Shown here piece after piece: positions 7,424-39,120 of a stretch of DNA of 64,000 nt (positions are counted from its first letter, which is position 1; every line of letters begins with the position of its first letter). The DNA comes from Methylomonas sp. EFPC3 (GTDB lineage: Bacteria > Pseudomonadota > Gammaproteobacteria > Methylococcales > Methylomonadaceae). The DNA lies in NCBI RefSeq assembly GCF_029643245.1, contig NZ_CP116398.1, forward strand, positions 3,528,372 through 3,592,371, read 5' to 3'. The notes beneath the pieces are model-generated. The model had not been told where the DNA came from and did no database searches. It saw nothing but the letters and a program-made list of their open reading frames with translations. The position numbers and the translations under genes were made by a program.

Positions 7424-8641
7424 ATGGCAAAACAAGAAGAGCAGATCGAATTCAATTGGGACGGTTTCGACAAACAAAACCGGAAAACCAAAGGCACTAT
7501 CAGTGCCAAAAGCGAAGTGATCGCTCGCGCCGAGCTGCGGCGGATGGGCATCCGGGTGATCGGTATCAAACCCAAGGCGAAACCCTTGTTCAGTCCGCGG
7601 GTGCAAAAAATCACGCCGGGCGATGTTGCCGTTTTTGCCCGCCAATTGGCGACCATGCTGGCGGCCGGCGTACCGCTGGTGCAGTCGTTCGATATCATCG
7701 GCAAGGGCCACGACAACGCCAGCATGTCGGAAATGCTGTTGTCGATCAAAGCCGACGTCGAGGGTGGCGATACCCTGGCGCAAGCATTGGGCCGCAAGCC
7801 GCTCTATTTCGACGCCTTGTTTTGCAATCTGGTCGAAGCCGGCGAACATGCCGGGGTATTGGAAACCTTGTTGGATAAGATTGCCACTTACAAGGAAAAA
7901 ACCGAGTCGATCAAGAAAAAAGTCAAAAAGGCTCTGACCTACCCGGTGGCAGTATTGGTGGTGGCGTTTATCGTTACCGCGATTTTGTTGGTGTTCGTGG
8001 TGCCGGTGTTCGAGGACTTGTTTAAAGGCTTCGGCGCCGATTTGCCGGCGTTCACCAAATTCGTCATCGATTTGTCGGCCTGGGTACAGGAATGGTGGTG
8101 GGCCGTGGTCGGCGTGCTATTTGTCGCCGGCTACACCTTTACCTACTTTAAAAAACGCTCGAAGGCCTTCAACCATTTTCTGGATCGGACCCTGTTGAAA
8201 ATACCGGTGGTCGGTATGATTTTGCAAAAATCGGCCATCGCCCGCTTCGCCAGAACCCTCTCGACCATGTCGGCCGCCGGCGTGCCGTTGGTCGAAGCCT
8301 TGGTTTCGGTGGCCGGCGCGTGCGGTAACATCTTGTTTTACGAGGCGGTGATGAAGGTGCGCGACGACGTCGCTACCGGCCAGCAATTGAAGTTCGCCTT
8401 GGAAACCACCGGCATATTTCCGAATATGGTGGTACAGATGGTGGCGATCGGCGAAGAATCCGGTTCGATCGACGCCATGCTGGACAAGGTCGCCGACTTT
8501 TACGAGGAAGAGGTCGATAACTTGGTCGACAACCTGAGCAGTTTGATGGAACCTATCATCATGGTGATCTTGGGGATTTTGGTCGGCGGTTTGATCGTGG
8601 CGATGTATTTGCCGATCTTCAAATTGGGCGCCGCTATCTAA
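7424..8641 (+). CDS. pilC: Type IV pilus inner-membrane platform protein PilC
   Basis: 405 aa GspF/PilC-family polytopic protein. Start lies 3 nt after the pilB stop. Confidence 0.9.
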   Translation: MAKQEEQIEFNWDGFDKQNRKTKGTISAKSEVIARAELRRMGIRVIGIKPKAKPLFSPRVQKITPGDVAVFARQLATMLAAGVPLVQSFDIIGKGHDNASMSEMLLSIKADVEGGDTLAQALGRKPLYFDALFCNLVEAGEHAGVLETLLDKIATYKEKTESIKKKVKKALTYPVAVLVVAFIVTAILLVFVVPVFEDLFKGFGADLPAFTKFVIDLSAWVQEWWWAVVGVLFVAGYTFTYFKKRSKAFNHFLDRTLLKIPVVGMILQKSAIARFARTLSTMSAAGVPLVEALVSVAGACGNILFYEAVMKVRDDVATGQQLKFALETTGIFPNMVVQMVAIGEESGSIDAMLDKVADFYEEEVDNLVDNLSSLMEPIIMVILGILVGGLIVAMYLPIFKLGAAI

Positions 8642-8700
8642 CCTGTTGCCGGTTCCGGCCTATTACAGGCAGCGGACCGGCCAGTCTTTACTGCTTACCT

Positions 8701-9567
8701 ATGTTGTTCAATGTCTTAGCTCAATCTCCCGGTTTTCTGGCCGCAAGCGCTTTAGTACTCGGCTTGCTGGTCGGCAGTTTTCTGAATGTGGTGATTTACC
8801 GGCTGCCGCTGATGATGCAGGCTGCGTGGCGGCGCGAGTGCCGCGAATACCTGGAATTGCCGGCCGAAGCCCCGGGCGAGCGTTTCGATCTGTTATTGCC
8901 GGCTTCGCACTGTCCGGCTTGCAAAGCCGAAATCAAAGCCTATCAAAACATCCCGGTCCTGAGCTATGTGCTGCTCGGCGGCAAATGCGCCAACTGCGGC
9001 AACAAAATCGGTTGGCGTTATCCTTCGATAGAGGCCTTTACCGGCCTGTGTTCGGCGCTGGTCGCTTGGCAACTGGGTTACGGCTGGGCGCTGGCGTTTG
9101 CGTTGCCGTTGACTTGGTGTCTGATTACACTGAGTTTTATCGATATCGATCAGCAATTGCTGCCGGACTCGATCACGCTGCCTTTGGTCTGGCTGGGTTT
9201 GCTGCTCAGCGTGTTCGGCATTTTTGCCGACAGCCGCGACAGTATCGTCGGCGCGGTAGCCGGTTATTTAAGCTTGTGGAGCGTCTACCACGGCTTTAAA
9301 TTGCTGACCGGCAAGGACGGCATGGGTTACGGCGATTTCAAATTACTGGCCGTATTCGGCGCCTGGCTGGGCTGGCAATATTTGCCGCTGATAATCTTGT
9401 TGGCTTCCCTGGTCGGTGCGGTGATTGGCGTCGCGATGATCGTGTTCTGCCGGCGCGATGCGGCCAAGCCGATTCCGTTCGGGCCTTATCTGGCTATGGC
9501 CGGCTGGCTGGCGCTATTGTGGGGTGAGCAAATGAATGCTTGGTATCTGCGGCTTGCAGGTCTGTGA
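8701..9567 (+). CDS. pilD: Prepilin peptidase / N-methyltransferase PilD
   Basis: 288 aa. Tetracysteine CPACK...CANCG and the A24 peptidase membrane core. Confidence 0.9.
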   Translation: MLFNVLAQSPGFLAASALVLGLLVGSFLNVVIYRLPLMMQAAWRRECREYLELPAEAPGERFDLLLPASHCPACKAEIKAYQNIPVLSYVLLGGKCANCGNKIGWRYPSIEAFTGLCSALVAWQLGYGWALAFALPLTWCLITLSFIDIDQQLLPDSITLPLVWLGLLLSVFGIFADSRDSIVGAVAGYLSLWSVYHGFKLLTGKDGMGYGDFKLLAVFGAWLGWQYLPLIILLASLVGAVIGVAMIVFCRRDAAKPIPFGPYLAMAGWLALLWGEQMNAWYLRLAGL

Positions 9568-22952: not shown

Positions 22953-24860
22953 ATGAAAAAATTTCTCATCCCGCTGTTCGTCCTGGCCGGTATCGCAATT
23001 GCACTGTTTGCCGCTTTCGATCCGACCTCTTCCGCCTATCACAAGCAAAACGACGAGTCTTACTCCGACTTCATTCTCGATGTCCGTAGTAAATCGGTCG
23101 CCGAGGTTGTGATCGACGGCCGTTCTATCCGCGGCCGACGCCATAACGGTAGCGAATTCAGCACCTACAACCCCGGCGATATGCGTATGATCGACGACTT
23201 GCTGGAATATGGCGTCAAAATCAAGGTTGAAAGGCCGGAAAACGAAATGAGTTTTCTGCAAATTTTCTACTCTTGGATTCCGACCCTGTTGTTGATTGCC
23301 GTATTGATTTATTTCATGCGTAAGCAGCAAATGGGAGCCGGCGGCCAAAACGCTTTTGGCAAAAGCCGCGCCAAATTAATGACGGAAGACCAGGTCAAGG
23401 TGCGTTTCGATGATGTCGCCGGCGCCGAGGAAGCCAAACAAGACGTGGTGGAATTGGTGGATTTCTTGAAAGACCCCGGTAAATACGAAGCGCTGGGCGG
23501 CAAGATTCCGCGCGGCGTATTGATGGTCGGCCCTCCGGGTACCGGTAAGACCTTGATTGCCAGAGCCATTGCCGGCGAGGCGGGTGTGCCGTTCTTCTCG
23601 ATCTCCGGTTCCGATTTCGTCGAAATGTTCGTTGGCGTCGGCGCTTCGCGTGTCCGCGACTTGTTCGAAAACGCCAAGAAGCGCGCGCCGTGCATCATTT
23701 TTATCGACGAAATCGACGCGGTCGGCCGCCAACGTAGTTCCGGGAATATGGGCGGAGCAGAAGAACGCGAACAAACCTTGAACCAATTGTTGGTGGAAAT
23801 GGACGGTTTCAACGGCAATGAAGGCATTATCGTCATCGCCGCCACCAACCGCGTCGACGTATTGGACAAAGCCTTACTGCGGCCGGGGCGCTTCGATCGC
23901 CAAGTGCAGGTCGGCTTGCCGGATATCAAAGGTCGTGAGCAAATCCTGAAAGTACATGCCGCCCGGGTGCCGCTGGCTGCCGATGTCGATATCAATGCGT
24001 TAGCTCGCGGTACCCCCGGATTCTCCGGGGCCGAACTGGCCAATCTGATCAACGAAGGCGCCTTGTTTGCCGCCCGCAACAACCAGCGGGAAGTGACCAT
24101 GAACGACTTGGACAAGGCGCGCGACAAAACCATCATGGGCGCGGAAAAACGCACGATGATCATGGGCCGCGAAGAACTGTTGATGACAGCCTACCATGAA
24201 GCCGGTCACGCCATCGTCGGTCGGCTGGTGCCGGAGCATGACCCGGTCTATAAAGTCAGCATCATGCCGCGCGGCGGCGCCTTGGGCATCACCATGTTCC
24301 TGCCGGAACGCGATCAATACAGCGCCAGCAAGGAAAAGCTGGAAGGCCAGATTTCCAGTCTGTTTGGCGGTCGGATCGCCGAGGCGCTGATTTACGGCAA
24401 AGACAAAGTCACTACCGGCGCCTCCAACGATATCCAGCGCGCCACCCAACTGGCGCGGAACATGGTGACCAAATGGGGTTTTTCCGACCGCTTGGGGCCG
24501 ATGGATTGCGGTGACAGCGATAGCGGCTATTTCGGGCCGCAGGCCAAGCCGATGTCGGAACAGATGGCTTTATTCGTCGACAAAGAAATTCGGCGGATGC
24601 TGTCCAGCAATTACCACCGCGCCGAAACCATCCTGAAGACGCATATCGATATTTTGCACAACATGGCTCAGGCCTTGCTGGATTGGGAAACTCTGGATAA
24701 GGGGCAGATCGATCAATTGATGAGGGGTAGAAAACTCTCACCGCCCAAGGTGGCGCCGGATAAGGCAAAAACCAACAAAACCAATATCGGATGGGGCGAG
24801 CCGGTCGGACCGTTACCGAACGGCGTCCCGGCGCTAGGCAGGACCCCGTTCCGGCATTGA
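22953..24860 (+). CDS. ftsH: ATP-dependent zinc metalloprotease FtsH
   Basis: 635 aa. Two TM helices, AAA module [11 protein letters not shown], and zinc motif HEAGH. Confidence 0.95.
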
Positions 24861-24934: not shown

Positions 24935-25657
24935 TTAGTGTACGTCTTTCCAGTATTCCTTTTTCAACAGGTAGGCCAAGACGATGAACATCAAGATAAA
25001 AAACAACACGTATTTACCCATTTGTTGCCGTTCCAGTTGTACCGGCTCGCCGACGTAGACCAGGAAATTGACCAGGTCGTTGACCAATTTGTCGAACTCT
25101 TTCGGCGACAATTGACCCGGTTGTTCCAAGTGCAGGCCGGTTACCATCTCCTGGCCCTCAACTTTGTGGATTTCGGCCGCTTGGCTGCCCTGCAATTGCC
25201 AGAACACATTGGGCATGCCCACATCCTTGAACACTGCGTTATTCACGCCCAACGGTTTCGATGGATCGTTGTAGAAGCTGCGCAGATAGCTGTATAGCCA
25301 GTCGGCGCCGCGAGAGCGGGCGATCAGCGACAAATCCGGCGGCGTGGTGCCGAACCATTTCTCTGCATCGTGCGCATTCATTGCCGAATGCATCTGATCG
25401 TAGATGCCGGCGCCCAACGGCGCGACGTTTTTCAAGATTTCCGCTTCGTCCAGTTTCAAATCCAGCGCGATACGTTTGTAACGGATATGCTTGGCCGAAT
25501 GGCAGCCCAAGCAGTAGGTCACGTAATGTTTCGCACCGCGTTCCAGTGATTGGATGTCGCTCAGATCGATGTCGGCGCTGTCCAGTTTGATGCCGCCGCC
25601 GCTGGCCAGTACGTTGAAAGGCAGCAAAAACAAAAGAGTGTAGAGTGTCTTTTTCAT
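24935..25657 (-). CDS. petC: Cytochrome c1 (bc1 complex)
   Basis: 240 aa. Signal peptide, CLGCH heme motif, and a C-terminal TM anchor. Confidence 0.9.
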   Translation of the reverse strand: MKKTLYTLLFLLPFNVLASGGGIKLDSADIDLSDIQSLERGAKHYVTYCLGCHSAKHIRYKRIALDLKLDEAEILKNVAPLGAGIYDQMHSAMNAHDAEKWFGTTPPDLSLIARSRGADWLYSYLRSFYNDPSKPLGVNNAVFKDVGMPNVFWQLQGSQAAEIHKVEGQEMVTGLHLEQPGQLSPKEFDKLVNDLVNFLVYVGEPVQLERQQMGKYVLFFILMFIVLAYLLKKEYWKDVH

Positions 25658-25660
25658 GGC

Positions 25661-27058
25661 TTAGTCCAGGCTCTTTTTCAGGTTCTTTGCAAAACGAATC
25701 AGCACGGCTTGAATACCGGACCAGTTCGGGCCTTTTTTCGGAATCGTACCGCCCAAATTATCGGGAACCTGACGGACCTCCACCACTTCTTCGATCAATG
25801 CCTTGACGGCCGGAATCCGGTCTTCCAGCGTCGGTTGCGGAGTCAGATGCTCCGGTACCGGCTTGGTTTTTTCCCAGCGGGTGTATAACGGCATCAACAG
25901 GAAGAAGCCGAAATAAACCGCAGTTAATACCCGGGCTACCATTGTGGCGCCGGGTGTGGCTGGTTGCGTACCCAGATAGCCCAGGCCTACGAAGGCGATG
26001 ACGAACAACAGCACCGCTTTTTTGAACAGGCCGCCACGGTAGCGGATGGATTTGACCGGGCTACGGTCCAGCCAAGGCAGCATGAACAGCACGACGATGG
26101 CGCCGCCCATGGCGATGACGCCGGCGAACTTATCCGGCACCGCACGCAAAATTGCGTAGAACGGGGTGAAATACCAGACCGGGGCGATATGTTCCGGCGT
26201 TTTTAAAGGGTCGGCCGGAATGAAGTTGGCGTGTTCCAGGAAGAAGCCGCCCATTTCCGGCATGTAGAAAATTACCGTCGCAAAGAAGAACATGAACACG
26301 CCGACGCCGACGATATCCTTGACGGTGTAGTAGGGATGGAACGGAATGCCGTCGACCGGGTTGCCTTTCCAGTTCAGGTTTTTCTTAATCTCGACGCCGT
26401 CCGGGTTGTTAGAGCCGACTTCGTGCAGTGCGACGATGTGCAGGAATACCAGGATCAGCAACACCAGCGGCACGGCAATGACGTGAAAGGCGAAGAAGCG
26501 GTTCAACGTCGCATCGGAGACCACGTAGTCGCCGCGTATCCACAGCGACAATTCGTCGCCGATCACCGGGATTGCGCTGAACAGCGAGATGATTACCTGT
26601 GCGCCCCAGTAGGACATCTGACCCCATGGCAGCAGATAGCCCATGAAGGCTTCGGCCATCAGGCAGACGAAAATCAGCATGCCGAAGATCCAGATCAGCT
26701 CGCGCGGTTGCTTGAACGAGCCGTAAACCAAGCCGCGGAACATGTGCAGATAGACCACGATGAAGAACGCCGAGGCGCCGGTGGAGTGCATGTAGCGCAC
26801 CAGCCAACCCCAGTTGACATCGCGCATGATGTATTCGACCGAGTCGAACGCCAGTTTGGCGTCCGGTTTGTAGTTCATCGTCAGCAGAATGCCGGTGACG
26901 AACTGGTTGACCAGTACCAGCAGCGCCAGCGAGCCGAAAAAGTACCAGATATTAAAATTTTTCGGCGCGTAGTAATGCGCCATGTGTTCGTTCCACAAAT
27001 CGGAGAGTGGAAACCGCTCCAACAGCCAGTCGCTGTATTGATTCATTTTTTGCTTCAT
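25661..27058 (-). CDS. petB: Cytochrome b (bc1 complex)
   Basis: 465 aa polytopic protein with conserved His ligands. Typical cytochrome b sequence. Confidence 0.9.
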   Translation of the reverse strand: MKQKMNQYSDWLLERFPLSDLWNEHMAHYYAPKNFNIWYFFGSLALLVLVNQFVTGILLTMNYKPDAKLAFDSVEYIMRDVNWGWLVRYMHSTGASAFFIVVYLHMFRGLVYGSFKQPRELIWIFGMLIFVCLMAEAFMGYLLPWGQMSYWGAQVIISLFSAIPVIGDELSLWIRGDYVVSDATLNRFFAFHVIAVPLVLLILVFLHIVALHEVGSNNPDGVEIKKNLNWKGNPVDGIPFHPYYTVKDIVGVGVFMFFFATVIFYMPEMGGFFLEHANFIPADPLKTPEHIAPVWYFTPFYAILRAVPDKFAGVIAMGGAIVVLFMLPWLDRSPVKSIRYRGGLFKKAVLLFVIAFVGLGYLGTQPATPGATMVARVLTAVYFGFFLLMPLYTRWEKTKPVPEHLTPQPTLEDRIPAVKALIEEVVEVRQVPDNLGGTIPKKGPNWSGIQAVLIRFAKNLKKSLD

Positions 27059-27654
27059 GCTGCTTTAGCCTCGCTGTCTTCGCCGATGACGATCAGATTG
27101 TCGGTTTCATACCGGTAGGGCGGAATTTCCAGATTGGTCGGCGCGGGTACGCCGCGGAATACGCGACCGGCCAAATCGAACCAGGAGCCGTGGCAGGGGC
27201 AGAAGAAACCGCCTTTCCAGTCGTTACCCAAATCGGCGGGGGCGATTTCCGGGCGGAAGGTGGGCGAGCAGCCCAAATGAGTGCACAGTCCGATCGCGAC
27301 AAAAACTTCCGGCTTGATCGAGCGCACCGAGTTTTTGCTGTTCTCGGGTTGGAGGGATTCGTTGGACACCGGATCGGCCAGTTTGCTGTCCAGCGTGGCC
27401 AGCGTCGTCAACACTTCCGGAGTACGGTTCAGGACCCATACCGGTTTGCCGCGCCAAGCCACCCGGATCAATTGGCCGGGCTCCATTTTACTGATGTCGA
27501 CCTCGACCGGTGCGCCTGCCGCCATGGCTTTGGCGCTGGGCTGCATTTGCGAGAGGAAGGGCACCGCCAGATATCCGGCACCCACGGCTCCAACCACCGA
27601 CAGCGCCGAGGTCAGAAATTGGCGCTTTGACGTATCGACGCCTTCTTGATTCAT
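27055..27654 (-). CDS. petA: Ubiquinol-cytochrome c reductase Rieske iron-sulfur subunit
   Basis: 199 aa. Tat-like signal and Rieske boxes CTHLGC...CPCHGS. Confidence 0.9.
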   Translation of the reverse strand: MNQEGVDTSKRQFLTSALSVVGAVGAGYLAVPFLSQMQPSAKAMAAGAPVEVDISKMEPGQLIRVAWRGKPVWVLNRTPEVLTTLATLDSKLADPVSNESLQPENSKNSVRSIKPEVFVAIGLCTHLGCSPTFRPEIAPADLGNDWKGGFFCPCHGSWFDLAGRVFRGVPAPTNLEIPPYRYETDNLIVIGEDSEAKAA

Positions 27655-27785: not shown

Positions 27786-28865
27786 CTAGGCCAGCGCGGC
27801 ATTCAGGGCCTGCAAAAAGGCCTGGTTTTCCTCCGGTTTGCCTATCGTCGCCCGCAAGCAGTTTTCCAACATTCCGCCCTGCGGGGACAGGTTCTTGATC
27901 AGCACGCCTTGCTGTTTCAAACCGGCAAAGACCGCATCCGCCGGTTTCGTCAGCGTGCGGAATAAAATGAAATTGGCCGCACTGGGGTAAGCTTTGACCG
28001 AATCCATGGTTTGTAAGGCCTGCATGACAATGCCGCGCTGTTCGCGAATCAGTTGGGTTTGGTCCAATAGAAACTGCGGATGGTCCAGCGCAAAACATGC
28101 AGTGGCCTGGGTCAGGCAGTTGATGTTGTAAGGCAGCCGGACTTTGTTCAGTTGTGCCAGCAAGGCGGGCGGGCCGGCCAGAAATCCCAGCCGCAAACCG
28201 GCCAGGCCCAGTTTGGAAACCGTGCGCATTACCAATAGATTGTCGTGTTGCGGCAACTGTTCGATGAAGCTGGCGTCGGCAAACGGCGCATAGGCCTCGT
28301 CCACCACCACCACGCCCGGCGCAGCGGCCAGGATCGCTTCGATAGCCGCCGGATCGAACAGATTGCCGGTCGGATTATTGGGATAGGCCAGGAAAATTAC
28401 GGCCGGTTGTTCGGTTTCGATGGTGGCCAGCATCGCCGGCAAATCCAGATCGAAGCTTTCTGCCAATAACGGCACGCCGCGGTAGCGCAAACCCAGGCTG
28501 AGGGCGATTTGCTTATACATAACAAAGCCGGGCTCGGGTGCCAACACGGCAGCTGTATTGGGCAGGGCCATCAGCAGGATTTGAATGATTTCGTCGGACC
28601 CGTTGCCGAGCAAAATGGCGGAGTCTTCCGGAATGGCGTTGCTGCGACGTAGTGCTGCGGCCAAGTCCTTCGCTTCCGGATCCGGATAGCGGTTCAGCGG
28701 ACAGGATTTCAGATGCTCCAGCCAGGTTTGTTGGATTTCATCCGGCCATGAATAGGGGTTTTCCATCGCGTCGAGTTTGATGTAATTGCTGGCGTCGGCG
28801 ACATGATACGCCGACAGCGCGAGGACTTCGCGGCGGAATAGGGTTTCGAGCGGTGGGAGCGGCAT
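27786..28865 (-). CDS. hisC: Histidinol-phosphate aminotransferase
   Basis: Class II aminotransferase. Start chosen at MPLPPLE; the ORF track allows 17 extra codons upstream. Confidence 0.8.
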   Translation of the reverse strand: MPLPPLETLFRREVLALSAYHVADASNYIKLDAMENPYSWPDEIQQTWLEHLKSCPLNRYPDPEAKDLAAALRRSNAIPEDSAILLGNGSDEIIQILLMALPNTAAVLAPEPGFVMYKQIALSLGLRYRGVPLLAESFDLDLPAMLATIETEQPAVIFLAYPNNPTGNLFDPAAIEAILAAAPGVVVVDEAYAPFADASFIEQLPQHDNLLVMRTVSKLGLAGLRLGFLAGPPALLAQLNKVRLPYNINCLTQATACFALDHPQFLLDQTQLIREQRGIVMQALQTMDSVKAYPSAANFILFRTLTKPADAVFAGLKQQGVLIKNLSPQGGMLENCLRATIGKPEENQAFLQALNAALA

Positions 28866-29145
28866 AGTGTTAAATCCGGCGGCATTGGAACGGGCGGCGG
28901 TTGGTCCTGGTTGCAAGCAGGCGGCCGCGGGGCAAAAAGTCGGCGGATTTTAACAAAGCGAGGGACGAAAGCGTAACCTTGCAAACCAGCCATCCAGCGT
29001 CCCCGTTGACGCGAATCGCCTGCTTCACTGCAGGCAAATCGGCGCGCGGATTTTAACACCGCATTGCTGCGCTCGCAAAGCCGGCTTGCTCAAGAGTTCA
29101 TAAGGTGTTTGCGGCTGCAAACGTCTATTTCAAACGGCGCTCACT

Positions 29146-30657
29146 TTAACCGCAATACACTTCGTCCTGTTCGATCAGAAACAACACCCAGGAAAATTGG
29201 CCGGTGCTGATTTTGCTGCCGCAGTAACCGCATTCGCCGCTTTGGCCCATGTTGTCGGCCGGCGCGCCGCAGCTGGGGCATTGGCTCAGGCTGTAGGGTT
29301 TGTCTTGGCGCTCCTTACCGCTACGGCGGACGAAGGTCCAGTATTCTGAAAAACGCCTGAGCGATGTTTTCGAACCGCCGACGATCTTGCCGGCGGCGTC
29401 TTCGGTGTAGTCGTTACAGGCGGCGAAGATGCGTACCGTGATGGCCTCGTAAAATTTGTCGCTGTCGATTTTCGCCAGCACGATTTGCTCGATACGCAGA
29501 TGCTCCAGTCGGTTGAACCAGCCGCGTTCGACATACATTTTCTGCCAGAAGGCATTGGTTTCGTAGAGCCGGTCCGATAACAGGTGCCGCGCCGCCTGCC
29601 AGTCGCGCCGGCTCCAGTGGCCGTATATCGCCGCAAAATAATTGCGTACCACGTCGTTCTCGAACGGCAACCAGAATTGCTGCCACTCGCCGATGCCGTA
29701 ACGCTGCTGCCAGCGGTTCATCTGTTCGATCAGGTCGGCTTGCTTGACCGTGATGGCTTGCGTGCCCTGCTCTTCGGCGTACGCCGCCAGTCCTTCCACA
29801 GCCGGCACCGCATGGGTGGCGACCACGACCCTTTTGCCCAGGCACCACTGCGCGTCGCCCTTTTGCACGCTGGCGCCGCAATAACCGCAGACGCCGGCGT
29901 CGGTGAAATGGGCCGGCGCGCCGCATTGCGGACAGTTCACGCTTTGTATTTTCTCCGGTTCCCCCGATAACAGGCCTTTGCGCCGGTAAAACTGCCAGCG
30001 CTCGACCACGGCATAGCGCGAACGCTGGTCCTGCAAATCCAAGGTGTAATTGGCGTCGAATTCGACGGTAATCGTGTCGGTATCGCTGCCGGCAGTTTTG
30101 ATCTCCAGCCAACGCAGACTGTTGACGACGATTTCGCTGACGGTCCAGGGTTGCGAGCGTTGGAAATGGCCTTGCAACTCGGCGCTCAAGAACGGCGACA
30201 GGTAGCTGAACTCCGGCTTGGTGGAATATTCGTAGAATTTGCAGTAGAGCGAATGGGCGAAATCCAAAAACACCACCGCGGAGAAATTGGCGCCGGCCTG
30301 TTTCAATGCCGCGATTTGCTCGGCAATGCTTTGTTGGCGTTGGGCGCGGTATTGCGCCGGCGGGGCCGTCACCATGCTCCTAGCCCCGGCTTGGCTGCGA
30401 AGCACGATGATAACAATCACGACGATGATGATGAACAAAATCAAGGCTTCCAGCGACGACATCGGATGGGCGCTGCCGGACGAGCTGCCGGAGCTGTCGT
30501 GCGTGCTCCAACTGGAGCCGGAATGCGACCAGCCGCCGGAGCTGTGCGAACTCGACGAACTGTGCGAGCTGCTGGAATGACCGCCGCCTGGCCGGGCCGG
30601 CAACGGTGGAGAAATGGCCAGACCGGCCAGTGCCAGGAGCAATAGCCACTTTTTCAT
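29146..30657 (-). CDS. Exported membrane-anchored protein with Ser/His-rich linker and 2x (Tim44-like NTF2-fold domain + CPxCG..CGYCG zinc ribbon)
   Basis: 503 aa from MKKWLLLLALAGLA. Signal peptide, about 45-aa S/H/G low-complexity stretch, TM helix ALILFIIIVVIVIIVL, then two repeated units ending in VNCPQCGAPA..GVCGYCG and SQCPSCGAPA..GECGYCG. The ORF track extends 194 aa over the upstream gene in another frame, which is read-through. Confidence 0.6.
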   Translation of the reverse strand: MKKWLLLLALAGLAISPPLPARPGGGHSSSSHSSSSSHSSGGWSHSGSSWSTHDSSGSSSGSAHPMSSLEALILFIIIVVIVIIVLRSQAGARSMVTAPPAQYRAQRQQSIAEQIAALKQAGANFSAVVFLDFAHSLYCKFYEYSTKPEFSYLSPFLSAELQGHFQRSQPWTVSEIVVNSLRWLEIKTAGSDTDTITVEFDANYTLDLQDQRSRYAVVERWQFYRRKGLLSGEPEKIQSVNCPQCGAPAHFTDAGVCGYCGASVQKGDAQWCLGKRVVVATHAVPAVEGLAAYAEEQGTQAITVKQADLIEQMNRWQQRYGIGEWQQFWLPFENDVVRNYFAAIYGHWSRRDWQAARHLLSDRLYETNAFWQKMYVERGWFNRLEHLRIEQIVLAKIDSDKFYEAITVRIFAACNDYTEDAAGKIVGGSKTSLRRFSEYWTFVRRSGKERQDKPYSLSQCPSCGAPADNMGQSGECGYCGSKISTGQFSWVLFLIEQDEVYCG

Positions 30658-31277
30658 AGGTCGATATCCAGCCGGTCCGGCAGTTCGTTGATGTCGCCAG
30701 CGCGCACCGGCAGGTAGCGGGCGAACGCGGCAGCCGTTTTTTCCAGCGCCTGCAGCAGACACTGTTCCGGTTGGCGCTCGGCGAAGATCCGGTCGAACTC
30801 GCTTTGCAATTCCTGCCATATCGCAAGCGGGATGGCCAGCTCCAAGCCGCGGTCCGGCAACAGAAACACCCGCCGTTCCAGCAACGAGCAATACACCAGA
30901 AAGCCGGTTTTGTCCCGAGTATGTTGAATCCCGCCTTTCTGGAAAATGGCTCTGGCCATGATTTCGACGCGCTTGTCCCGCGTCGACCGCCTGACGCTGC
31001 AGCGTTTGACCGCCGGCAGCGAACCGACGCCATAGGCGAGCGCAAACATCGCCAGCGGCGCGTAATAGACCAGCCAATTCTCGAAATAAACCGGCGCGTA
31101 CATTATCAGGGTGAAAGCCAACCAGGCCGCGGCCAAGCCCCATAGCAACGGTACCGCGGCATAGTCGCCGGATCGGGCGCGAAACACCACTACCGCTTCG
31201 GCCTGCGAACCGTTTTCCAGGCTTTTGATCGCGTCCCACAGCCGGCTTTGGTAGGCCGGCGCCAAATACTGTTTCAT
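30654..31277 (-). CDS. Membrane protein with TPM-like (TLP18.3/Psb32/MOLO-1) region
   Basis: 208 aa from MKQYLAPAY. Two TM helices. EAVVVF and GFLVYCSLLERRVFLLPDRGLE resemble the TPM domain. Stop overlaps the downstream ATG. Confidence 0.5.
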   Translation of the reverse strand: MKQYLAPAYQSRLWDAIKSLENGSQAEAVVVFRARSGDYAAVPLLWGLAAAWLAFTLIMYAPVYFENWLVYYAPLAMFALAYGVGSLPAVKRCSVRRSTRDKRVEIMARAIFQKGGIQHTRDKTGFLVYCSLLERRVFLLPDRGLELAIPLAIWQELQSEFDRIFAERQPEQCLLQALEKTAAAFARYLPVRAGDINELPDRLDIDL

Positions 31278-31489
31278 AGGCTTGTTCCAGCTTGATCTAT
31301 ACTCAGAGTTGCCGCTTGGTACTTCTAATAGCCTCGGTTGCGGCCGGGGCATGGCAGGCAAATCCGTTCTGCGGCTAAGTCTAGTCGTTTTGCAGAATGG
31401 TGTTGTTCACCGGGAGTGTGCCGATCTGATGGCGGCGGTGGCGCGACGCGCCATCGGACACCCAATTCAAAAATCCACAGGAGACTCTC

Positions 31490-32512
31490 ATGGGACTTTT
31501 CGACGGTTTGCAACGCCAATTGCGTTCGGTCATCGAATGGCAAAATCCGGCGCCCAATGCGCTGTTCCAACAATGGAGCGACAACGGCGACGAAATCAAG
31601 AACGCCTCGACACTGATCGTCGGCCCCGGCCAGGGTTGCATATTCGTCTACCGCGGCAAGGTGCAAGCGGTATTCGACAGCGAAGGCTCCTACAACCTGC
31701 AAACCGATAACATCCCGTTCTGGACCACGATTGCCAGCTTCATGCAGTTCTTCGAAAGCCAGTTCAAGGTCGGGATTTATTTCTATCGCAAGACTGTGAT
31801 TCTGGATCAGAAATGGGGCACCAGCTCGCAGATCAAATATCTGGACCCGACCTACAAATTCCCGGTCGGTTTGAGAGCTTTCGGCAATTACAGTTACCGT
31901 TTGGCCGAACCGGCGCAGTTCTTCGTCAACGTGGTCGGCGAGCAAAACCTGTTTACCACCGACCAATTGCGCAACGTGATTGTCGCCCGCCTCAGCCAGC
32001 CGTTGGCGGATTTTCTGGCGACCAGCCGTTTCGGTTATCTGGATATCGACACCAACCGCGAGGAAATCGCCGCCGGCGTGCTGCAAAAATTATTGCCGCA
32101 GTTCGCCGATCTCGGTTTTACCATCACCGATTTTCGGATCGAAGGCACCGACTTCGACGAGGAAACCCTCAAGCGCGTCAATCGCATCGCCGATATGACC
32201 GCCGAGGCCCAGGCGGCCAAGGAAGTCGGTCTGGATTACGCCCGGATCCAGCAACTGGAAGCGATGCGCGAAGCCGCCCGCAACGAAGGCGGCGGCGCCG
32301 GAGTCGGAATGGGCTTGGGCGCCGGCATCAGTTTTGGCCAAAATCTGGCGCAAGCGATGAACACCCCAGCCGCTGCATCGCCCGCGCCCGCCCAGGCAGC
32401 GGCAGCCGACCCGATGGAAAAACTGGCGCAACTGAAGAAAATGTTCGAGGCGGAATTGATCACCGCCGAGGAATATGCAGAGAAGAAGAAAAGCATTCTG
32501 GAGGGAATCTAA
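31490..32512 (+). CDS. SPFH/Band-7 (flotillin-like, YdjI-like) protein with C-terminal SHOCT domain
   Basis: 340 aa. SPFH core followed by Gly/Ala linker and MEKLAQLKKMFEAELITAEEYAEKKKSIL, a SHOCT-type motif. Confidence 0.7.
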   Translation: MGLFDGLQRQLRSVIEWQNPAPNALFQQWSDNGDEIKNASTLIVGPGQGCIFVYRGKVQAVFDSEGSYNLQTDNIPFWTTIASFMQFFESQFKVGIYFYRKTVILDQKWGTSSQIKYLDPTYKFPVGLRAFGNYSYRLAEPAQFFVNVVGEQNLFTTDQLRNVIVARLSQPLADFLATSRFGYLDIDTNREEIAAGVLQKLLPQFADLGFTITDFRIEGTDFDEETLKRVNRIADMTAEAQAAKEVGLDYARIQQLEAMREAARNEGGGAGVGMGLGAGISFGQNLAQAMNTPAAASPAPAQAAAADPMEKLAQLKKMFEAELITAEEYAEKKKSILEGI

Positions 32513-32685: not shown

Positions 32686-33723
32686 ATGGATATCGCCGAA
32701 CTGTTGACGTTCTCCGTCAAGAATAAAGCTTCCGACTTGCACCTTTCCGCCGGCTTGCCGCCGATGATCCGGGTGGACGGCGACATTCGCCGGATCAACA
32801 TCCCGGCCCTGAACCACAAGGAAGTGCACGCGCTGATTTACGACATCATGAACGACAAGCAGCGCCGCGATTACGAGGAGTTTCTGGAAACCGACTTTTC
32901 GTTTGCCTTGCCGGGGGTAGCCCGATTCCGGGTCAACGCCTTCAATCAGGATCGCGGTGCCGGCGCGGTATTCCGGACCATTCCGTCGAAAGTCTTGACC
33001 CTGGAAGAGCTGGATGCGCCCAAGTTTTTTCAGGAGCTGTGTACCAAGCCGCGCGGTTTGATTTTGGTGACCGGACCGACCGGTTCCGGTAAATCCACCA
33101 CGTTGGCGGCGATGATCAACCACATCAACAACAACGATTACGCCCACATCCTCACGGTCGAAGATCCGATCGAGTTTGTTCACGAAAGCCAGAAATCGCT
33201 GATTAACCAGCGCGAGGTGCATCGCGATACGCTGGGTTTCAACGAAGCCTTGCGCTCGGCGTTGCGGGAAGACCCGGACATCATCCTGGTCGGCGAGATG
33301 CGCGATTTGGAAACCATTCGTCTGGCGCTGACTGCGGCCGAAACCGGCCACTTGGTGTTCGGCACCTTGCACACCACTTCGGCCGCCAAGACCATAGACC
33401 GGATCATCGACGTGTTCCCGGCGGCCGAGAAAGACATGATCCGGGCCATGTTGTCCGAGTCGTTACAGGCGGTTATTTCGCAAACACTGCTGAAGAAGGT
33501 CGGCGGCGGCCGGATCGCTGCGCATGAGATCATGGTCGGTACCCCGGCGATCCGCAACCTGATCCGTGAAGCCAAGGTGGCGCAGATGTATTCGGCGATT
33601 CAGACCGGGCGCAAGGACGGCATGCAGACGCTGGACCAAAACCTGAAAGAGCTGGTCGACAAGGGCCTGATTACCGCCAAGGCGGCGATGACTCGGGCCG
33701 TCAATAAAGACATGTTCCGCTGA
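32686..33723 (+). CDS. pilT: Twitching motility ATPase PilT
   Basis: 345 aa. GPTGSGKSTT Walker A and PilT family motifs. Confidence 0.9.
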   Translation: MDIAELLTFSVKNKASDLHLSAGLPPMIRVDGDIRRINIPALNHKEVHALIYDIMNDKQRRDYEEFLETDFSFALPGVARFRVNAFNQDRGAGAVFRTIPSKVLTLEELDAPKFFQELCTKPRGLILVTGPTGSGKSTTLAAMINHINNNDYAHILTVEDPIEFVHESQKSLINQREVHRDTLGFNEALRSALREDPDIILVGEMRDLETIRLALTAAETGHLVFGTLHTTSAAKTIDRIIDVFPAAEKDMIRAMLSESLQAVISQTLLKKVGGGRIAAHEIMVGTPAIRNLIREAKVAQMYSAIQTGRKDGMQTLDQNLKELVDKGLITAKAAMTRAVNKDMFR

Positions 33724-33739
33724 TGAACGAGGAGGCCTG

Positions 33740-34873
33740 ATGGACTTTACCGCGCTATTGGCATTGATGGTGGAAAAACGGGCGTCGGATTTATTCATTA
33801 CCGCCGGGCGGCCGCCGTCGATGAAAGTCAACGGCAAAGTCGTCGAAGTCTCGAAGACGTCGCTGACCAGCGAACAAACCCTGAAGCTGGTGCTCGGCAT
33901 CATGTCGCAACGCCAGCGCGACGAATTCGAAAACACCAAGGAATGCCAATTCGCGTTAAGCGCGCACAGTCTGGGCCGGTTCCGGGTCAGCGCCTTCACC
34001 CAGCGCGATTCGGCCGGCATGGTGTTGCGCCGGATCGAAACCACGATTCCGACTGCGGAAGAGTTGCATCTGCCGCCGGTGTTGAAGGAATTGATCATGC
34101 ACAAGCGCGGCTTGGTCATGTTCGTCGGTGCGACCGGCACCGGTAAATCGACCTCGCTCGCGGCCTTGATCCGCCACCGCAACGAAAACAGCAGCGGCCA
34201 CATCATTTCCATCGAAGATCCGATCGAGTTCATTCACCCCCACCAGGGCTGTATCATTACCCAGCGCGAAGTGGGTCTGGATACCGAATCGTTCGAAGTC
34301 GCTTTGAAAAACACACTGCGTCAAGCGCCGGACGTGATTCTAATCGGCGAGGTCAGGACCCGCGAGACCATGCAACACGCGATAACCTTTGCCGAGACCG
34401 GCCACCTGTGCGTCTGTACCTTGCACGCCAACAACGCCAACCAGGCCATAGACCGCATCCTGCACTTTTTCCCGGAAGACATGCACAGCCAGTTGTTCAT
34501 GGACTTGTCTTTGAATTTGCGCGGCATCGTCGCTCAGCAATTGATTCAGCGTGCTGATGGCAAAGGCCGTTATCCCGCCATCGAAATTCTGTTGAATACG
34601 CCGCTAGTCGCCGATTTGATTCGTAAGGGCGAGGTGCATAAATTAAAAGAATTGATGAAGAGCTCGCGCGAGCATGGCATGCAAACTTTCGACCAGGCGC
34701 TTTACGATCTGTACACAGCCGGTAAAATTAGTTACGAAGATGCTCTGCACGCTGCCGACTCCCGCAACGAAGTCCGCCTGATGATCAAATTGGGCGCCGA
34801 GAACGTCAATTTCGAAACCGCCGGCATGACGTTGGCCGAAAGCGACGAAGACGGAGGCAGCCTTTATAAATAA
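33740..34873 (+). CDS. pilU: Twitching motility ATPase PilU
   Basis: 377 aa PilT paralog directly downstream of pilT. Confidence 0.85.
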   Translation: MDFTALLALMVEKRASDLFITAGRPPSMKVNGKVVEVSKTSLTSEQTLKLVLGIMSQRQRDEFENTKECQFALSAHSLGRFRVSAFTQRDSAGMVLRRIETTIPTAEELHLPPVLKELIMHKRGLVMFVGATGTGKSTSLAALIRHRNENSSGHIISIEDPIEFIHPHQGCIITQREVGLDTESFEVALKNTLRQAPDVILIGEVRTRETMQHAITFAETGHLCVCTLHANNANQAIDRILHFFPEDMHSQLFMDLSLNLRGIVAQQLIQRADGKGRYPAIEILLNTPLVADLIRKGEVHKLKELMKSSREHGMQTFDQALYDLYTAGKISYEDALHAADSRNEVRLMIKLGAENVNFETAGMTLAESDEDGGSLYK

Positions 34874-34891: not shown

Positions 34892-36046
34892 TTGCCAGAC
34901 TTAGCCCCACCGAATTCGATACTCAAATTTGCCGCTGCCGCAGCGTTGGCCACACTTCTATGCGGCTGTGCTTCCGAGCCGCCGCGTAGCCAACTGCGAA
35001 CGTCGGCACCGGTCAAACCCAATCCGCCCAGCCAATCGGTCAAGGTCCAGCCCGACCTTAGGCCCTATGCCAGCATTGGCAGCTATCGGGCCGCTGCGAT
35101 AAGCGGCGATTACGCCGCTTATCCGGCATTGGCTCAATTTATCGAGCAGATGGTGCAAAAGCACGGCTTCGATCGGGAATATTTGAACGGTCTGTTCTCG
35201 CAAGCCAAACGCAAACAATGGACCTTGGATTATCTGGCCAAGTCCGACCAAGGTTTAAAAGGCAAGCCCAGCAAAGGCGGCTGGACCCGTTACCGTTCCC
35301 AATTTCTGGATGCCCGCCATATTGATGCCGGCGTGGCGTTCTGGCGGGCGCACCAGAACGCTTTGCAGCGTGCCAGCCGACAATACGGCGTTCCGGCGGA
35401 ATACATTCTGGGTATTCTGGCGGTGGAAACCACCTTCGGCGGCTTCGTCGGCAATCACCGGGTGATCGATGCGCTGACCACGCTGGGTTTCGATTACCAG
35501 CGCCGCGGCGAATTTTTTCGTAGCGAGCTGGAGAGTTTTCTGGTGATGACCCGGGGCGAAGGCATCGATCCCGCCAAGCCGGTCGGCTCCTTCGCCGGGG
35601 CGATGGGGCTGGGCCAATTCATGCCCAGCAGCTTTTTGCAATGGGCGGTGGATTTCAATGGCGACGGTCGGCGTGACTTATGGAACCCCCAGGACGCGAT
35701 CGGCAGTGTCGCCAATTATTTTGCCCAGCACGGCTGGCGTAGCGAGCAGCCGGTAGTTAGTAACACTCGCGGCAGCTACAGCGGTATCGATAGTTTGGAG
35801 CCGGGTATCGATCGCGAATATCCGCTGGGTACATTGCTGCAAGCCGGTATCGAACCGGCCGGCAATTGCGGCTGCGATTATCCGCTCCGATTGTTGTTGC
35901 TCAGGCACCAAAACTCCGATGAATATTTATTGGGACACCCGAATTTCTACGTGATTACCCGCTACAACCACAGCACCCATTACGCGATGGCGGTGCATGA
36001 GCTGGCTCAGGCCATCAGACGCGGCTATCAACAGCTCGCCGGATAA
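34892..36046 (+). CDS. mltB: Lytic murein transglycosylase B (lipoprotein)
   Basis: Lipobox LLCGCA. MltB/Slt family 2 catalytic region. Apparent TTG start. Confidence 0.8.
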   Translation: MPDLAPPNSILKFAAAAALATLLCGCASEPPRSQLRTSAPVKPNPPSQSVKVQPDLRPYASIGSYRAAAISGDYAAYPALAQFIEQMVQKHGFDREYLNGLFSQAKRKQWTLDYLAKSDQGLKGKPSKGGWTRYRSQFLDARHIDAGVAFWRAHQNALQRASRQYGVPAEYILGILAVETTFGGFVGNHRVIDALTTLGFDYQRRGEFFRSELESFLVMTRGEGIDPAKPVGSFAGAMGLGQFMPSSFLQWAVDFNGDGRRDLWNPQDAIGSVANYFAQHGWRSEQPVVSNTRGSYSGIDSLEPGIDREYPLGTLLQAGIEPAGNCGCDYPLRLLLLRHQNSDEYLLGHPNFYVITRYNHSTHYAMAVHELAQAIRRGYQQLAG

Positions 36047-37784: not shown

Positions 37785-38087
37785 TTACGGTTTGTCGAGC
37801 TGCTCCAGCTTGGCGGTTTCGTTCCAATCGGAAAACGGAAACGGCAATTGCTCGGTATTGAAAGTTAAAAACAGCAGGATATGGTAATGGTAGGTCGACA
37901 GGCTGCGGCCGAAACTGAGGATGTTGGCGTTGGCCGCACCGGTAAACAGTACCGAACCTACCTGCAGCAAAATCACCAGCCACAACAGCAGTTTGACCAA
38001 ACTGTCTATCGCAGCGAAAACCAGCATGAAGATCACCCGTTTCCAGGTTTCGATTTTTTTCAAATTCTCGTTGATCTGTTCTTGCAT
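37785..38087 (-). CDS. Small membrane protein (DUF4389-like)
   Basis: 100 aa with two TM helices. Sits 6 nt upstream of dinB in the same orientation. Confidence 0.45.
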   Translation of the reverse strand: MQEQINENLKKIETWKRVIFMLVFAAIDSLVKLLLWLVILLQVGSVLFTGAANANILSFGRSLSTYHYHILLFLTFNTEQLPFPFSDWNETAKLEQLDKP

Positions 38088-38097
38088 GGTCGTGGTT

Positions 38098-39120
38098 TTA
38101 ACCTCTGTTCATCACGTCGCGCAAGTCCAGTGCGGCCGCATTGGCGCGGGCAATGTAGTTGGCCATGGCCAGCGAATAGTTGGCAAACACGCCGAAACCG
38201 TCGCCGTTCAGAACCACCGGACTTAAAGTCGGCGTCAACGCATTTTCCAGCGCCTGAATCATGTTATCCAGCGTGTTCATCGCCCGTTTGTCCAACAGAA
38301 TGTCGGAAAAGTCGTGTTTGATGGCTCTCAGGATGTGTAGCAAGGCCCAGCAGGAACCGCGCGCTTCGTAGAATACGTTGTCGATTTCCATCCAAGGCGT
38401 CTGGCCGATGGTCGGCATGTTGATGTCGACCGGATTCGATGGGTCGCCGTGCGCAGCGCCGGCAAATTTGTCGGTACTGGCGGCGAGACGGGTCGACAGA
38501 CCGCCCAGGCGCTTGATCACGACTTCGGTATATTGCCACAAGTTGTCAGCGCGGGAATGGAACTGGGCTGCTCTCGAGGTCGAAGTCGGATTTTGCAGCC
38601 GCGACATATAGGCATGTAATGCCTCGATACCTTTAATATATTCGGACTCGGTGGACGGCAAGGCCCAGGAATTGCGTTCGTAGTAGAAGTAAGGCTCCGC
38701 TTTGGCTAAATCCGGGTCTTCCGCCGATTGCGATTGGTCTCTGGCAAAGTGGTTGCGTAAGGCGGTGGTACCGTCGCGCAGCATGACCAGTGCGCCGTAT
38801 TCGAAACTTTGGATGTTGTCGCAAAACAGGCCGGGAGGCGCGACGTCGTTGGACAGGTAGCCGCCGGCTTTGAACAGAATGACGTCGGCGATGTGGGCCA
38901 GCGTATTGGCGTAAACGTAACCGATCGGCATCTGGTCGGTATGGGTCACATTCATGCGTTCGATCGCTTCATCCTGAACGTTAAATTGCTCGGGCTCACG
39001 GCTCCACCATTCGCCTAAAATCAACATGACCACAACGACGATGCCTATCAGCGTACCGAAACCCCAGAGTATGCCTTTAGACTTGGCGTCTTCTTCGAGT
39101 GCGAATGAATTGTCTGACAT
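38098..39120 (-). CDS. DUF2333-family protein (N-terminal TM anchor)
   Basis: 340 aa. One TM helix then a large soluble domain. Family assigned from memory of dinB-neighbour genes in pseudomonads. Confidence 0.5.
   Translation of the reverse strand: MSDNSFALEEDAKSKGILWGFGTLIGIVVVVMLILGEWWSREPEQFNVQDEAIERMNVTHTDQMPIGYVYANTLAHIADVILFKAGGYLSNDVAPPGLFCDNIQSFEYGALVMLRDGTTALRNHFARDQSQSAEDPDLAKAEPYFYYERNSWALPSTESEYIKGIEALHAYMSRLQNPTSTSRAAQFHSRADNLWQYTEVVIKRLGGLSTRLAASTDKFAGAAHGDPSNPVDINMPTIGQTPWMEIDNVFYEARGSCWALLHILRAIKHDFSDILLDKRAMNTLDNMIQALENALTPTLSPVVLNGDGFGVFANYSLAMANYIARANAAALDLRDVMNRG

Follow-up and report, generated by a model that had tools for sequence, protein, structure and literature searches.

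A divergent SPFH gene beside a conserved TPM-Tim44/zinc-ribbon gene pair in Methylomonas: one module or two?

In Methylomonas sp. EFPC3 (Gammaproteobacteria; Methylococcales; Methylomonadaceae) the gene for a soluble SPFH protein stands back to back with two overlapping genes for predicted membrane proteins, one of them carrying a TPM domain and the other Tim44-like domains and zinc ribbons (ZnR). Do these three genes specify a single device, or two that merely share a divergent spacer? The locus lies at positions 29,146 to 32,512 of a 64,000-nucleotide stretch that was analyzed as a whole and is here called the window (NCBI RefSeq assembly GCF_029643245.1, contig NZ_CP116398.1, positions 3,528,372 to 3,592,371 of the forward strand). 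A first reading by a model, made from the letters and their open reading frames (ORFs) and referred to below as the original prediction, had likened the three genes to the ydjG, ydjH and ydjI genes that accompany a pspA paralogue in Firmicutes. The short answer is that the conserved unit is the two-gene TPM-Tim44/ZnR operon, which is spread over some five phyla and in most cases has no SPFH gene close to it, and that the divergent triad is found in 14 genomes of the methanotroph family Methylomonadaceae.

The case for the pair comes from a scan of one genome per species, in which relatives of the Tim44/ZnR protein were found in 490 genomes and the best 80 loci were analyzed; 71 of these have at least 700 bp of sequence upstream of the Tim44/ZnR gene and could be evaluated. 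(An exhaustive HMMER search gives 466 clusters of relatives, at 50% identity and E values up to 1e-30.) Those 80 loci are spread over Methylococcales, Bacteroidota, Chlorobiota, Gemmatimonadota and Leptospirales. A TPM gene lies no more than 400 bp upstream, on the same strand, in 64 of the 71 evaluable genomes, and an exact 4-nt overlap of the two genes is found in 25 of the 71 (a subset of the 64). It is more distant in two loci (782 and 2311 bp) and was not found upstream in five. Clustering the ORFs of the loci discloses no neighbor family, beyond the pair, that is common across lineages. It is because the TPM-Tim44/ZnR adjacency is kept and no other neighbor is shared in this way that the pair counts as the conserved unit. 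Bare pairs are seen in Beggiatoa alba, in a Flammeovirgaceae metagenome-assembled genome (MAG) and on two metagenome contigs, and the pair also occurs with no adjacent SPFH gene in Bacteroidota, Chlorobiota, Gemmatimonadota and other Methylococcales. The expectation that all three genes would be conserved together is borne out in the 14 Methylomonadaceae genomes and fails elsewhere, where the pair is met without the SPFH gene.

(A note on the exceptions: loci L051, L067 and L076 have no adjacent TPM gene although their contigs extend more than 3 kb upstream. In two of these rare cases, L067 9737-11311, from a Leptospirales MAG, and L076 9782-11290, from a Bacteroidales MAG, the upstream genes are citrate-synthase-like and peptidase-like, as judged from their translations by eye. 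One Gemmatimonadota MAG has two Tim44/ZnR copies on separate contigs: the L056 copy has a 4-nt overlap with its TPM gene, and no TPM gene turned up in the mere 780 bp of sequence that precede the L063 copy.)

The gene layout itself is secure. The three genes and their ATGA junction, as first described, are confirmed by the ORFs, by the sequence at the junction and by database homologues of the same length (502, 207 and 340 amino acids (aa) for the Tim44/ZnR, TPM and SPFH proteins, respectively); coordinates are collected in Table 1. The TPM protein has a 100% identical match in PL263_15970 of Methylomonas sp. EFPC3, the Tim44/ZnR protein is 96% identical to its counterpart in Methylomonas aurea (best aligned segment) and 90% to that of M. 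koyamae, and an AGGAG box precedes the start of the SPFH gene. The shared divergent region is present, with a length of 212 bp in place of the earlier figure of 210. Profile searches back the SPFH, TPM and Tim44 assignments, and the SHOCT assignment as a probable one, its score being below the cut-off.

What, then, does the pair encode? The order of elements in the 503-aa protein is signal peptide, Ser/Gly/His-rich tail, one transmembrane (TM) helix, and two copies of a module composed of a Tim44-like NTF2-fold domain and a Cys4 zinc ribbon. The Pfam Tim44 match (E 4e-20) is confined to residues 337-458; with a score above the Pfam gathering threshold and the fold of the Tim44 C-terminal domain, the protein belongs to the Tim44-like family (PF04280). 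The duplication that had been proposed, 2x(Tim44-like + zinc ribbon), is correct because the halves align profile to profile (hhalign, 99.2% probability, E 7e-20, 166 columns); moreover, all eight cysteines of the two ribbons are invariant in 103 sequences, and residues 239-262, in the first ribbon, give weak Pfam Zn_ribbon_3/DZR matches. The AlphaFold model has a predicted local distance difference test (pLDDT) score of 83.8, and its top structural matches are Tim44 and mL45. The NCBIfam models for bacterial Tim44/TimA proteins remain below cut-off (NF033779, 52.2 vs 80 bits; NF033778, 24.1 vs 200 bits), and a PDB sequence search returned nothing significant.

Alignment and hydropathy reveal all three of the N-terminal features first noted in this protein: signal peptide, Ser/His-rich linker and internal TM helix. 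Position -1 relative to the predicted cleavage site is Ala in 102 of 103 homologues, and position -3 is A, V, S, L, T or I, with one Met exception. In the motif that follows, no change is seen at R22, G25 or G26 across the 103 sequences, and almost none at G24 (family form R-[PMFL]-G-G-G-[HSQ]-S). This strict conservation at the predicted mature N-terminus of the family is unexplained. The linker is 43% Ser and 25% Gly across the family and ranges in length from 17 to 77 aa; pLDDT is below 50 over residues 15-63. From the signal peptide and the one strong TM helix with basic residues after it, the protein is predicted to be membrane-anchored (type I): the periplasmic part would amount to ~45 residues, and the two Tim44/ZnR modules would be cytoplasmic, a placement that suits Cys4 zinc sites. 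The label "exported protein" that had been attached to it does not fit a predicted topology that leaves only those ~45 residues outside the cytoplasm.

The TPM protein is identified by a Pfam TPM_phosphatase (PF04536) score of 30.6 bits against a gathering cut-off of 22.1, by a family-profile match to BA42 and by a TPM α-β-α fold. The Pfam match covers only the C-terminal two thirds of the protein; BA42 is matched with E 2e-7 by the single sequence and with E 1.3e-18 by a profile of 65 homologues. The AlphaFold model (pLDDT 84.2) has TPM proteins as all eight of its best Foldseek matches, with a TM-score of 0.79 on BA42 as target. The BA42 alignment is in two pieces that skip residues ~37-107 (from profile position 36 to 108) because the TPM fold is interrupted, after its first strand and before the helix that follows, by two long helices: AlphaFold places helices 41-60 and 67-85 between strand 26-33 and helix 97-114. 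The protein has no signal peptide, and KRCSVRRSTRDKR comes after the second TM helix; both parts of the TPM domain should on these grounds be cytoplasmic. E27, T120, E134 and D142, all acidic or polar, are invariant in the family. So, in 65 sequences, are N197, E198 and L199 of the C-terminal D-I-N-E-L-P-D motif, with D195, P200 and D201 at least 90% conserved, and BA42 has DDIDELPN aligned with it. The extended motif, D-I-N-E-L-P-D-x-L, sits in a low-confidence tail (pLDDT <50, residues 196-207). That tail could be a docking peptide.

The SPFH protein matches Pfam Band_7_1 (PF13421) over residues 32-236 (E 5.6e-39). Its C-terminus probably holds a SHOCT domain: the score at residues 310-337 is 22.3 bits against a Pfam cut-off of 27, a Ralstonia relative scores 26.9 bits, and SHOCT (PF09851) is on record for many SPFH homologues of 65-85% identity. 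Band_7_1 is the domain to which SHOCT is most often fused (PMC3581485). Hydropathy finds no hydrophobic segment in the 340 residues and hence no TM helix or hairpin of the protein's own, of the kind that marks HflK/C-FtsH, stomatin-NfeD and the flotillins; a PDB sequence search returned nothing significant.

The divergent triad is seen in the window and in 13 other loci (L004-L016), and in none of the remaining loci; its 14 Methylomonadaceae genomes represent at least five genera, among them Methylomonas, Methylobacter, Methylovulum, Methylomicrobium and Methylocucumis, and the Tim44/ZnR protein at triad loci is at least 53% identical to that of the window. In all 14 the triad is unbroken, while the genes beyond both of its ends differ in nearly every genome. 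The spacer measures 52-66 bp in nine of the 13 related genomes, 212 bp in the window and 174 bp in M. aurea. Visual comparison of the triad spacers brings out a conserved TATAAT-like box, of which the window has a copy (a putative promoter; Table 1). A scan for σ70 promoters found no consensus match within the spacer at its threshold, and terminator-like matches occur at chance level. No RNA element was recognized in the spacer (no Rfam match at E up to 1). Two peculiarities of individual spacers may be recorded: the extra spacer DNA of the window includes an imperfect, species-specific hairpin at 31425-31458, ~30 nt before the SPFH start, and the spacer of L016, at 440 bp, has GGGGAGGG-type inverted repeats.

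Where did the SPFH gene come from? Outside the triad set its closest relatives (65-70% identity) are followed by a gene for a soluble ~220-aa protein that bears three zinc ribbons; in some cases LemA comes before them. Under one assembly accession, ERZ1034363, contigs carry this SPFH-ZnR operon (L097) and a bare TPM-Tim44/ZnR pair (L060) at separate places. The soluble zinc-ribbon partner is missing from the triads, with the exception of a remnant in L006. Gene order makes it plausible that the triad is a clade-specific joining of two units that are separate in related genomes, with loss of the old zinc-ribbon partner beside SPFH. The remnant is a short zinc-ribbon homologue downstream of SPFH in Methylobacter sp. 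KS41 (L006 8049-8306, reverse strand; 53% identity over 86 aa), and L006 seems to represent a stage between the one gene arrangement and the other. (Other Methylococcales examples of the (LemA)-SPFH-3xZnR operon are L084 5413-7672, L085 6001-7668, L086 5414-7670, L097 5001-6697 and L098 5001-6687. The operon adjoins a divergent hexapeptide-repeat, γ-carbonic-anhydrase-like gene. In L084, from Methylomarinum sp. Ch1-1, a split reverse-transcriptase/maturase (RVT_1, GIIM) at 8081-9393, just downstream of the SPFH-ZnR operon, is probably a degraded group II intron.)

How close is the resemblance to the B. subtilis YdjG, YdjH and YdjI proteins (SamG, SamH and SamI)? The pspA-ydjGHI sequence used here was taken from a metagenome contig via the pattern of a published primer (PMC8581546); the PspA C-terminus and the gene starts of the recovered locus agree with the published primers. 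The part of the likeness that stands is the SPFH protein, which is homologous to YdjI/SamI (BLASTP, 27% identity over 267 aa, E 2e-30; both match PF13421). The other two share domain classes only: the TPM family and YdjH show no significant similarity (profile probability 0.2%), though both match Pfam TPM, and hhalign aligns the Tim44/ZnR family with YdjG over only 23 columns of one zinc ribbon, with a probability of 36%. Since the TPM and zinc-ribbon partners are not homologues of YdjH and YdjG, the analogy is one of domain classes plus a single homologous protein. As for pspA, its reported absence from the window is upheld: jackhmmer searches with B. subtilis and E. coli PspA as queries found no homologue in the 64-kb window or in ~95 related loci, while B. 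subtilis loci, the positive control, were recovered. The coiled-coil ORFs of the window, considered as PspA candidates, were ruled out, being DarP and DUF2058 and negative with jackhmmer.

A YdjI-like module without pspA in a Gram-negative bacterium is also not new in itself, because Band_7_1 genes on a chromid of Paracoccus ferrooxidans and a plasmid of Vibrio coralliilyticus are followed by genes whose products match YdjG over its full length (E 1e-31 and 1e-34, respectively). Band_7_1 SPFH genes sampled from proteobacteria repeatedly have a zinc-ribbon gene next downstream, and pspA is in none of those loci. The window is a different assortment of the same domain classes (SPFH, TPM, zinc ribbon). 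(The Paracoccus, Vibrio and Ralstonia loci are L089 5001-7437, L090 5001-7154 and L088 4551-7542, respectively. The Paracoccus SPFH protein has a GYF_2 domain in place of SHOCT; on the Ralstonia megaplasmid the order is DUF350, SPFH-SHOCT and a ZnR/DUF4178 membrane protein.)

The explanation that we tentatively prefer, at something short of an even chance, makes the pair an inner-membrane heterocomplex that serves as a platform at the cytoplasmic face and, in Methylomonadaceae, docks an SPFH oligomer, with membrane or envelope homeostasis as the likely role. Tim44 and mL45 are membrane-face adaptors. The steps might be these: 1) The TPM protein would be held at the membrane by its inserted TM hairpin, and signal-peptidase cleavage of the type I protein would leave a short Ser/Gly-rich periplasmic tail that starts R-P-G-G-G-H-S. 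2) The two proteins would form a complex; if Tim44 and mL45 are a guide, the Tim44-like domains would hold it on the inner leaflet and act as an adaptor, and the zinc ribbons would be protein-docking "knobs". 3) In Methylomonadaceae the SPFH-SHOCT protein would be expressed from the same divergent control region and recruited to the platform, to oligomerize there and scaffold or restrain it. 4) The external tail of the Tim44/ZnR protein might report on the envelope. The parallel is with SamG-SamH recruiting SamI, here with non-orthologous anchors and in the absence of PspA.

Several considerations weigh against this proposal. Clade-specific residues that separate triad from non-triad genomes amount to one position of the 503 in the Tim44/ZnR protein, and a search for an SPFH-binding surface marked by such residues was abandoned on that count. 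Because no SPFH gene adjoins the pair outside Methylomonadaceae, the SPFH link could be secondary, or absent, in most hosts. The kinship with the Sam system is, as just noted, homology for one protein and a sharing of domain classes for the other two. A pspA gene could lie elsewhere in the genomes, the PspA search having covered the window and ~95 related loci. TPM domains have been credited with many unrelated roles (PMC13456599). Gene structure, domains, folds, conservation of the pair and the clade-restricted conservation of the triad are computed observations; function, complex formation and SPFH recruitment are inferred, and the topology of both membrane proteins is deduced from sequence rules.

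The alternative that survives best, possible yet on balance unlikely, is that SPFH is a mere neighbor: a single rearrangement in the ancestor of Methylomonadaceae brought together two units that work independently, and the SPFH protein has its partners elsewhere (a zinc-ribbon protein, LemA, or a protease such as FtsH). Most lineages do have the pair and no SPFH gene, the nearest SPFH relatives do have an operon of their own, both units do occur at separate places under ERZ1034363, and the Tim44/ZnR protein has next to no clade-specific residues. Yet the junction has stayed intact in 14 genomes while both outer junctions changed in nearly all of them; the ancestral zinc-ribbon gene has been lost beside SPFH in the triads, to the point of a remnant in one; and a spacer of 52-66 bp forces the control regions to overlap in most. 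Rather improbable is a version in which the two proteins form an autonomous inner-membrane adaptor complex, widespread in several phyla, as the counterpart in free-living bacteria of the manner in which Tim44 and mL45 tether a soluble machine to the cytoplasmic membrane face; its processed tail (R-P-G-G-G-H-S at the N-terminus, then the Ser/Gly-rich stretch) would couple it to the state of the envelope, with SPFH rings as one client among others.

Still less probable is an enzyme system: a TPM protein that is a membrane-bound phosphatase or nucleotidase at the cytoplasmic face, with the Tim44/ZnR protein as regulator or presenter of substrate and scaffolding as a secondary matter. The Pfam family is named TPM_phosphatase, four of its acidic and polar residues (E27, T120, E134, D142) are invariant, and phosphatase or ATPase activity is reported for AtTLP18.3, Rv2345, BA41 and BA42 (PMC13456599, PMC9478572). 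On the other hand AscF, a cytoplasmic TPM subunit, does not bind metals or nucleotides and has been called an adaptor (PMC13456599), and Ravi et al. prefer a chaperone or assembly role for TPM (PMC11237479). A strict Psp-type envelope-stress module, with the three proteins anchoring and regulating a PspA/Vipp1-family ESCRT-III protein encoded elsewhere in the genome, is very unlikely: YdjI, YdjG and YdjH are all required for PspA foci in B. subtilis (PMC8581546) and Band-7 genes adjoin pspA in several phyla (PMC9239133), but searches that recover B. subtilis PspA find none in the window or the ~95 pair and triad loci, the coiled-coil candidates have other identities, and two of the three proteins are not YdjG or YdjH homologues.

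To return to the preferred proposal of a docking platform: what would be new about it? Each of the domains, the Band_7_1-SHOCT architecture and the SamGHI theme are already known. The TPM(hairpin)-Tim44/ZnR operon, the invariant processed N-terminal motif and the clade-specific SPFH coupling were not found described in the literature; searches on Tim44-like with TPM and SPFH, on Band_7_1 and on TimA gave nothing relevant for this pair. The description of the system as uncharacterized is accordingly apt, PADLOC likewise having produced nothing. Soluble Band_7_1 SPFH proteins need membrane receptors, and to our knowledge the SamG/SamH case of B. subtilis is the only one studied; the locus suggests a second, non-orthologous SPFH receptor put together from the same domain classes. 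If that is true, the theme of SPFH, TPM and a zinc ribbon/NTF2 fold is modular and has been reassembled more than once. The pair also provides a genomic partner for a TPM subfamily, the BA42 type, in which the one protein of solved structure has no known function, and a tractable bacterial setting in which to study the part that Tim44-like domains play at membranes. Methylomonas and Methylomicrobium are genetically tractable, so that the predictions can be tested.

Table 1. Coordinates of the locus, its parts and its neighbors, in window positions
Feature	Position	Strand	Description and basis
Tim44/ZnR gene	29146..30657	-	503 aa, start MKKW; ORF and start codon, Pfam Tim44, homologues, AlphaFold
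TPM gene (BA42-like)	30654..31277	-	207 aa; Pfam TPM, BA42 profile match, Foldseek
SPFH gene	31490..32512	+	340 aa, soluble; Band_7_1, Gly/Ala-rich linker, probable SHOCT-like C-terminal helix pair
ATGA overlap	30654..30657	-	TPM stop TGA and Tim44/ZnR start ATG; read from sequence
Divergent intergenic spacer	31278..31489	none	212 bp
TATACT box	31298..31303	+	Putative promoter pointing to SPFH gene, copy of TATAAT-like element; visual comparison with spacers of 13 loci
Tim44/ZnR: predicted cleavable signal peptide	30595..30657	-	Residues 1-21, MKKWLLLLALAGLAISPPLPA; residue pattern in 103 homologues, cleavage inferred
Tim44/ZnR: near-invariant motif R-P-G-G-G-H-S	30574..30594	-	Residues 22-28, directly after predicted cleavage site; 103-sequence alignment
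Tim44/ZnR: Ser/Gly/His-rich low-complexity linker	30457..30573	-	Residues 29-67, predicted periplasmic; composition, low pLDDT
Tim44/ZnR: TM helix	30394..30456	-	Residues 68-88, then basic residues RSQAGAR; hydropathy peak 3.36, AlphaFold helix 68-88
Tim44/ZnR: Tim44-like domain 1 and zinc ribbon 1	29806..30360	-	Residues 100-284, Cys 242, 245, 257, 260; hhalign, invariant cysteines
Tim44/ZnR: Tim44-like domain 2 and zinc ribbon 2	29149..29760	-	Residues 300-503, Cys 460, 463, 476, 479; Pfam Tim44, invariant cysteines
TPM: two-helix TM hairpin inserted in TPM fold	31023..31157	-	Residues 41-85; AlphaFold, BA42 alignment gap, hydropathy
TPM: C-terminal motif D-I-N-E-L-P-D	30675..30695	-	Residues 195-201; 65-sequence alignment
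FtsH-type protease gene	22953-24860	+	Neighbor; FtsH_ext, AAA, Peptidase_M41
Cytochrome bc1 genes (petABC)	24935-27654	-	Neighbors; Rieske, cytochrome b, cytochrome c1
Aminotransferase gene	27786-28916		Neighbor
Two PilT/PilU-type ATPase genes	32686-34873		Neighbors
Lytic transglycosylase gene	34892-36046		Neighbor

The neighborhood, though made up of ordinary genes (Table 1), offers its own temptations. Complex III assembly and the mycobacterial CIII-CIV supercomplex have both been connected with TPM proteins, and petABC is two genes away; a bc1 link was rejected, the adjacency being absent in M. aurea and in all other loci. HflK/C-type SPFH proteins regulate FtsH; an FtsH link was rejected as well, the protease gene being 6.6 kb from SPFH with four unrelated genes between them and the proximity not being conserved in related loci. 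An anti-phage defense system was rejected because PADLOC models match none of the three proteins (E up to 0.01). Farther along the window, genes for conserved membrane proteins of unknown function, DUF4389 (100 aa) and DUF2333 (340 aa), lie at 37785-39120 on the reverse strand.

How does the locus compare with systems already described? With SamGHI it has in common a soluble Band_7_1 SPFH protein homologous to YdjI/SamI, encoded together with a TPM membrane protein and a zinc-ribbon/NTF2-type membrane protein, and the proposed recruitment of the former by the latter two: soluble YdjI depends on both YdjG and YdjH to reach the B. subtilis membrane, and YdjH is an interaction partner of YdjI (PMC8581546); SamI restrains SamGH (bioRxiv 10.64898/2026.02.06.704340). 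The differences are considerable: 1) The Methylomonas genes are divergent, whereas those of B. subtilis form one operon. 2) The window SPFH protein ends in the probable SHOCT domain, YdjI in a zinc ribbon. 3) The TPM domain is predicted to be cytoplasmic and to be held by a TM hairpin, whereas YdjH, read by eye, has a signal peptide, an external TPM domain, a TM helix and a cytoplasmic low-complexity tail; the topology is apparently inverted. 4) The Tim44/ZnR protein is built in the order signal peptide, tail, TM helix and 2x(Tim44+ZnR), YdjG in the order 2xZnR, a YpeB/NTF2-like domain and TM helix. 5) No pspA is linked to the module of the window.

The remaining comparisons concern the parts. 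Relative to the Tim44 C-terminal domain and mL45 (PF04280), the window protein differs in having two copies of the domain, each with a Cys4 zinc ribbon as its cap, and in its predicted anchor, a genuine TM helix that carries a tail on the outside; none of the evidence implies a link to an import motor or to ribosomes. BA42 of Bizionia argentinensis (PDB 4OA3/2LT2) is the closest solved relative of the TPM protein, down to the C-terminal D-I-x-E-L-P, and neither of the two has a signal peptide, but BA42 is soluble, whereas the window protein has ~70 additional residues, which form the TM hairpin, at the place that corresponds to the stretch from residue 39 to residue 46 of BA42. The proteobacterial pairs of a Band_7_1 gene followed by a zinc-ribbon gene, in Methylomarinum and related MAGs, Paracoccus, Vibrio and Ralstonia, differ from the triad in that the partner gene runs in the same direction as the SPFH gene and encodes one of three products, namely a soluble 3xZnR protein, a homologue of YdjG or a membrane protein of the ZnR/DUF4178 kind; these partners have no Tim44-like domains, and their loci have no TPM gene. 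The mycobacterial AscF/AscG of the CIII-CIV supercomplex match the window TPM protein weakly in structure (8OVC, 6ADQ; Foldseek E ~0.2-0.4), but share with its predicted arrangement a TPM domain on the cytoplasmic side that is held by a TM element and serves as an adaptor, not an enzyme (PMC13456599).

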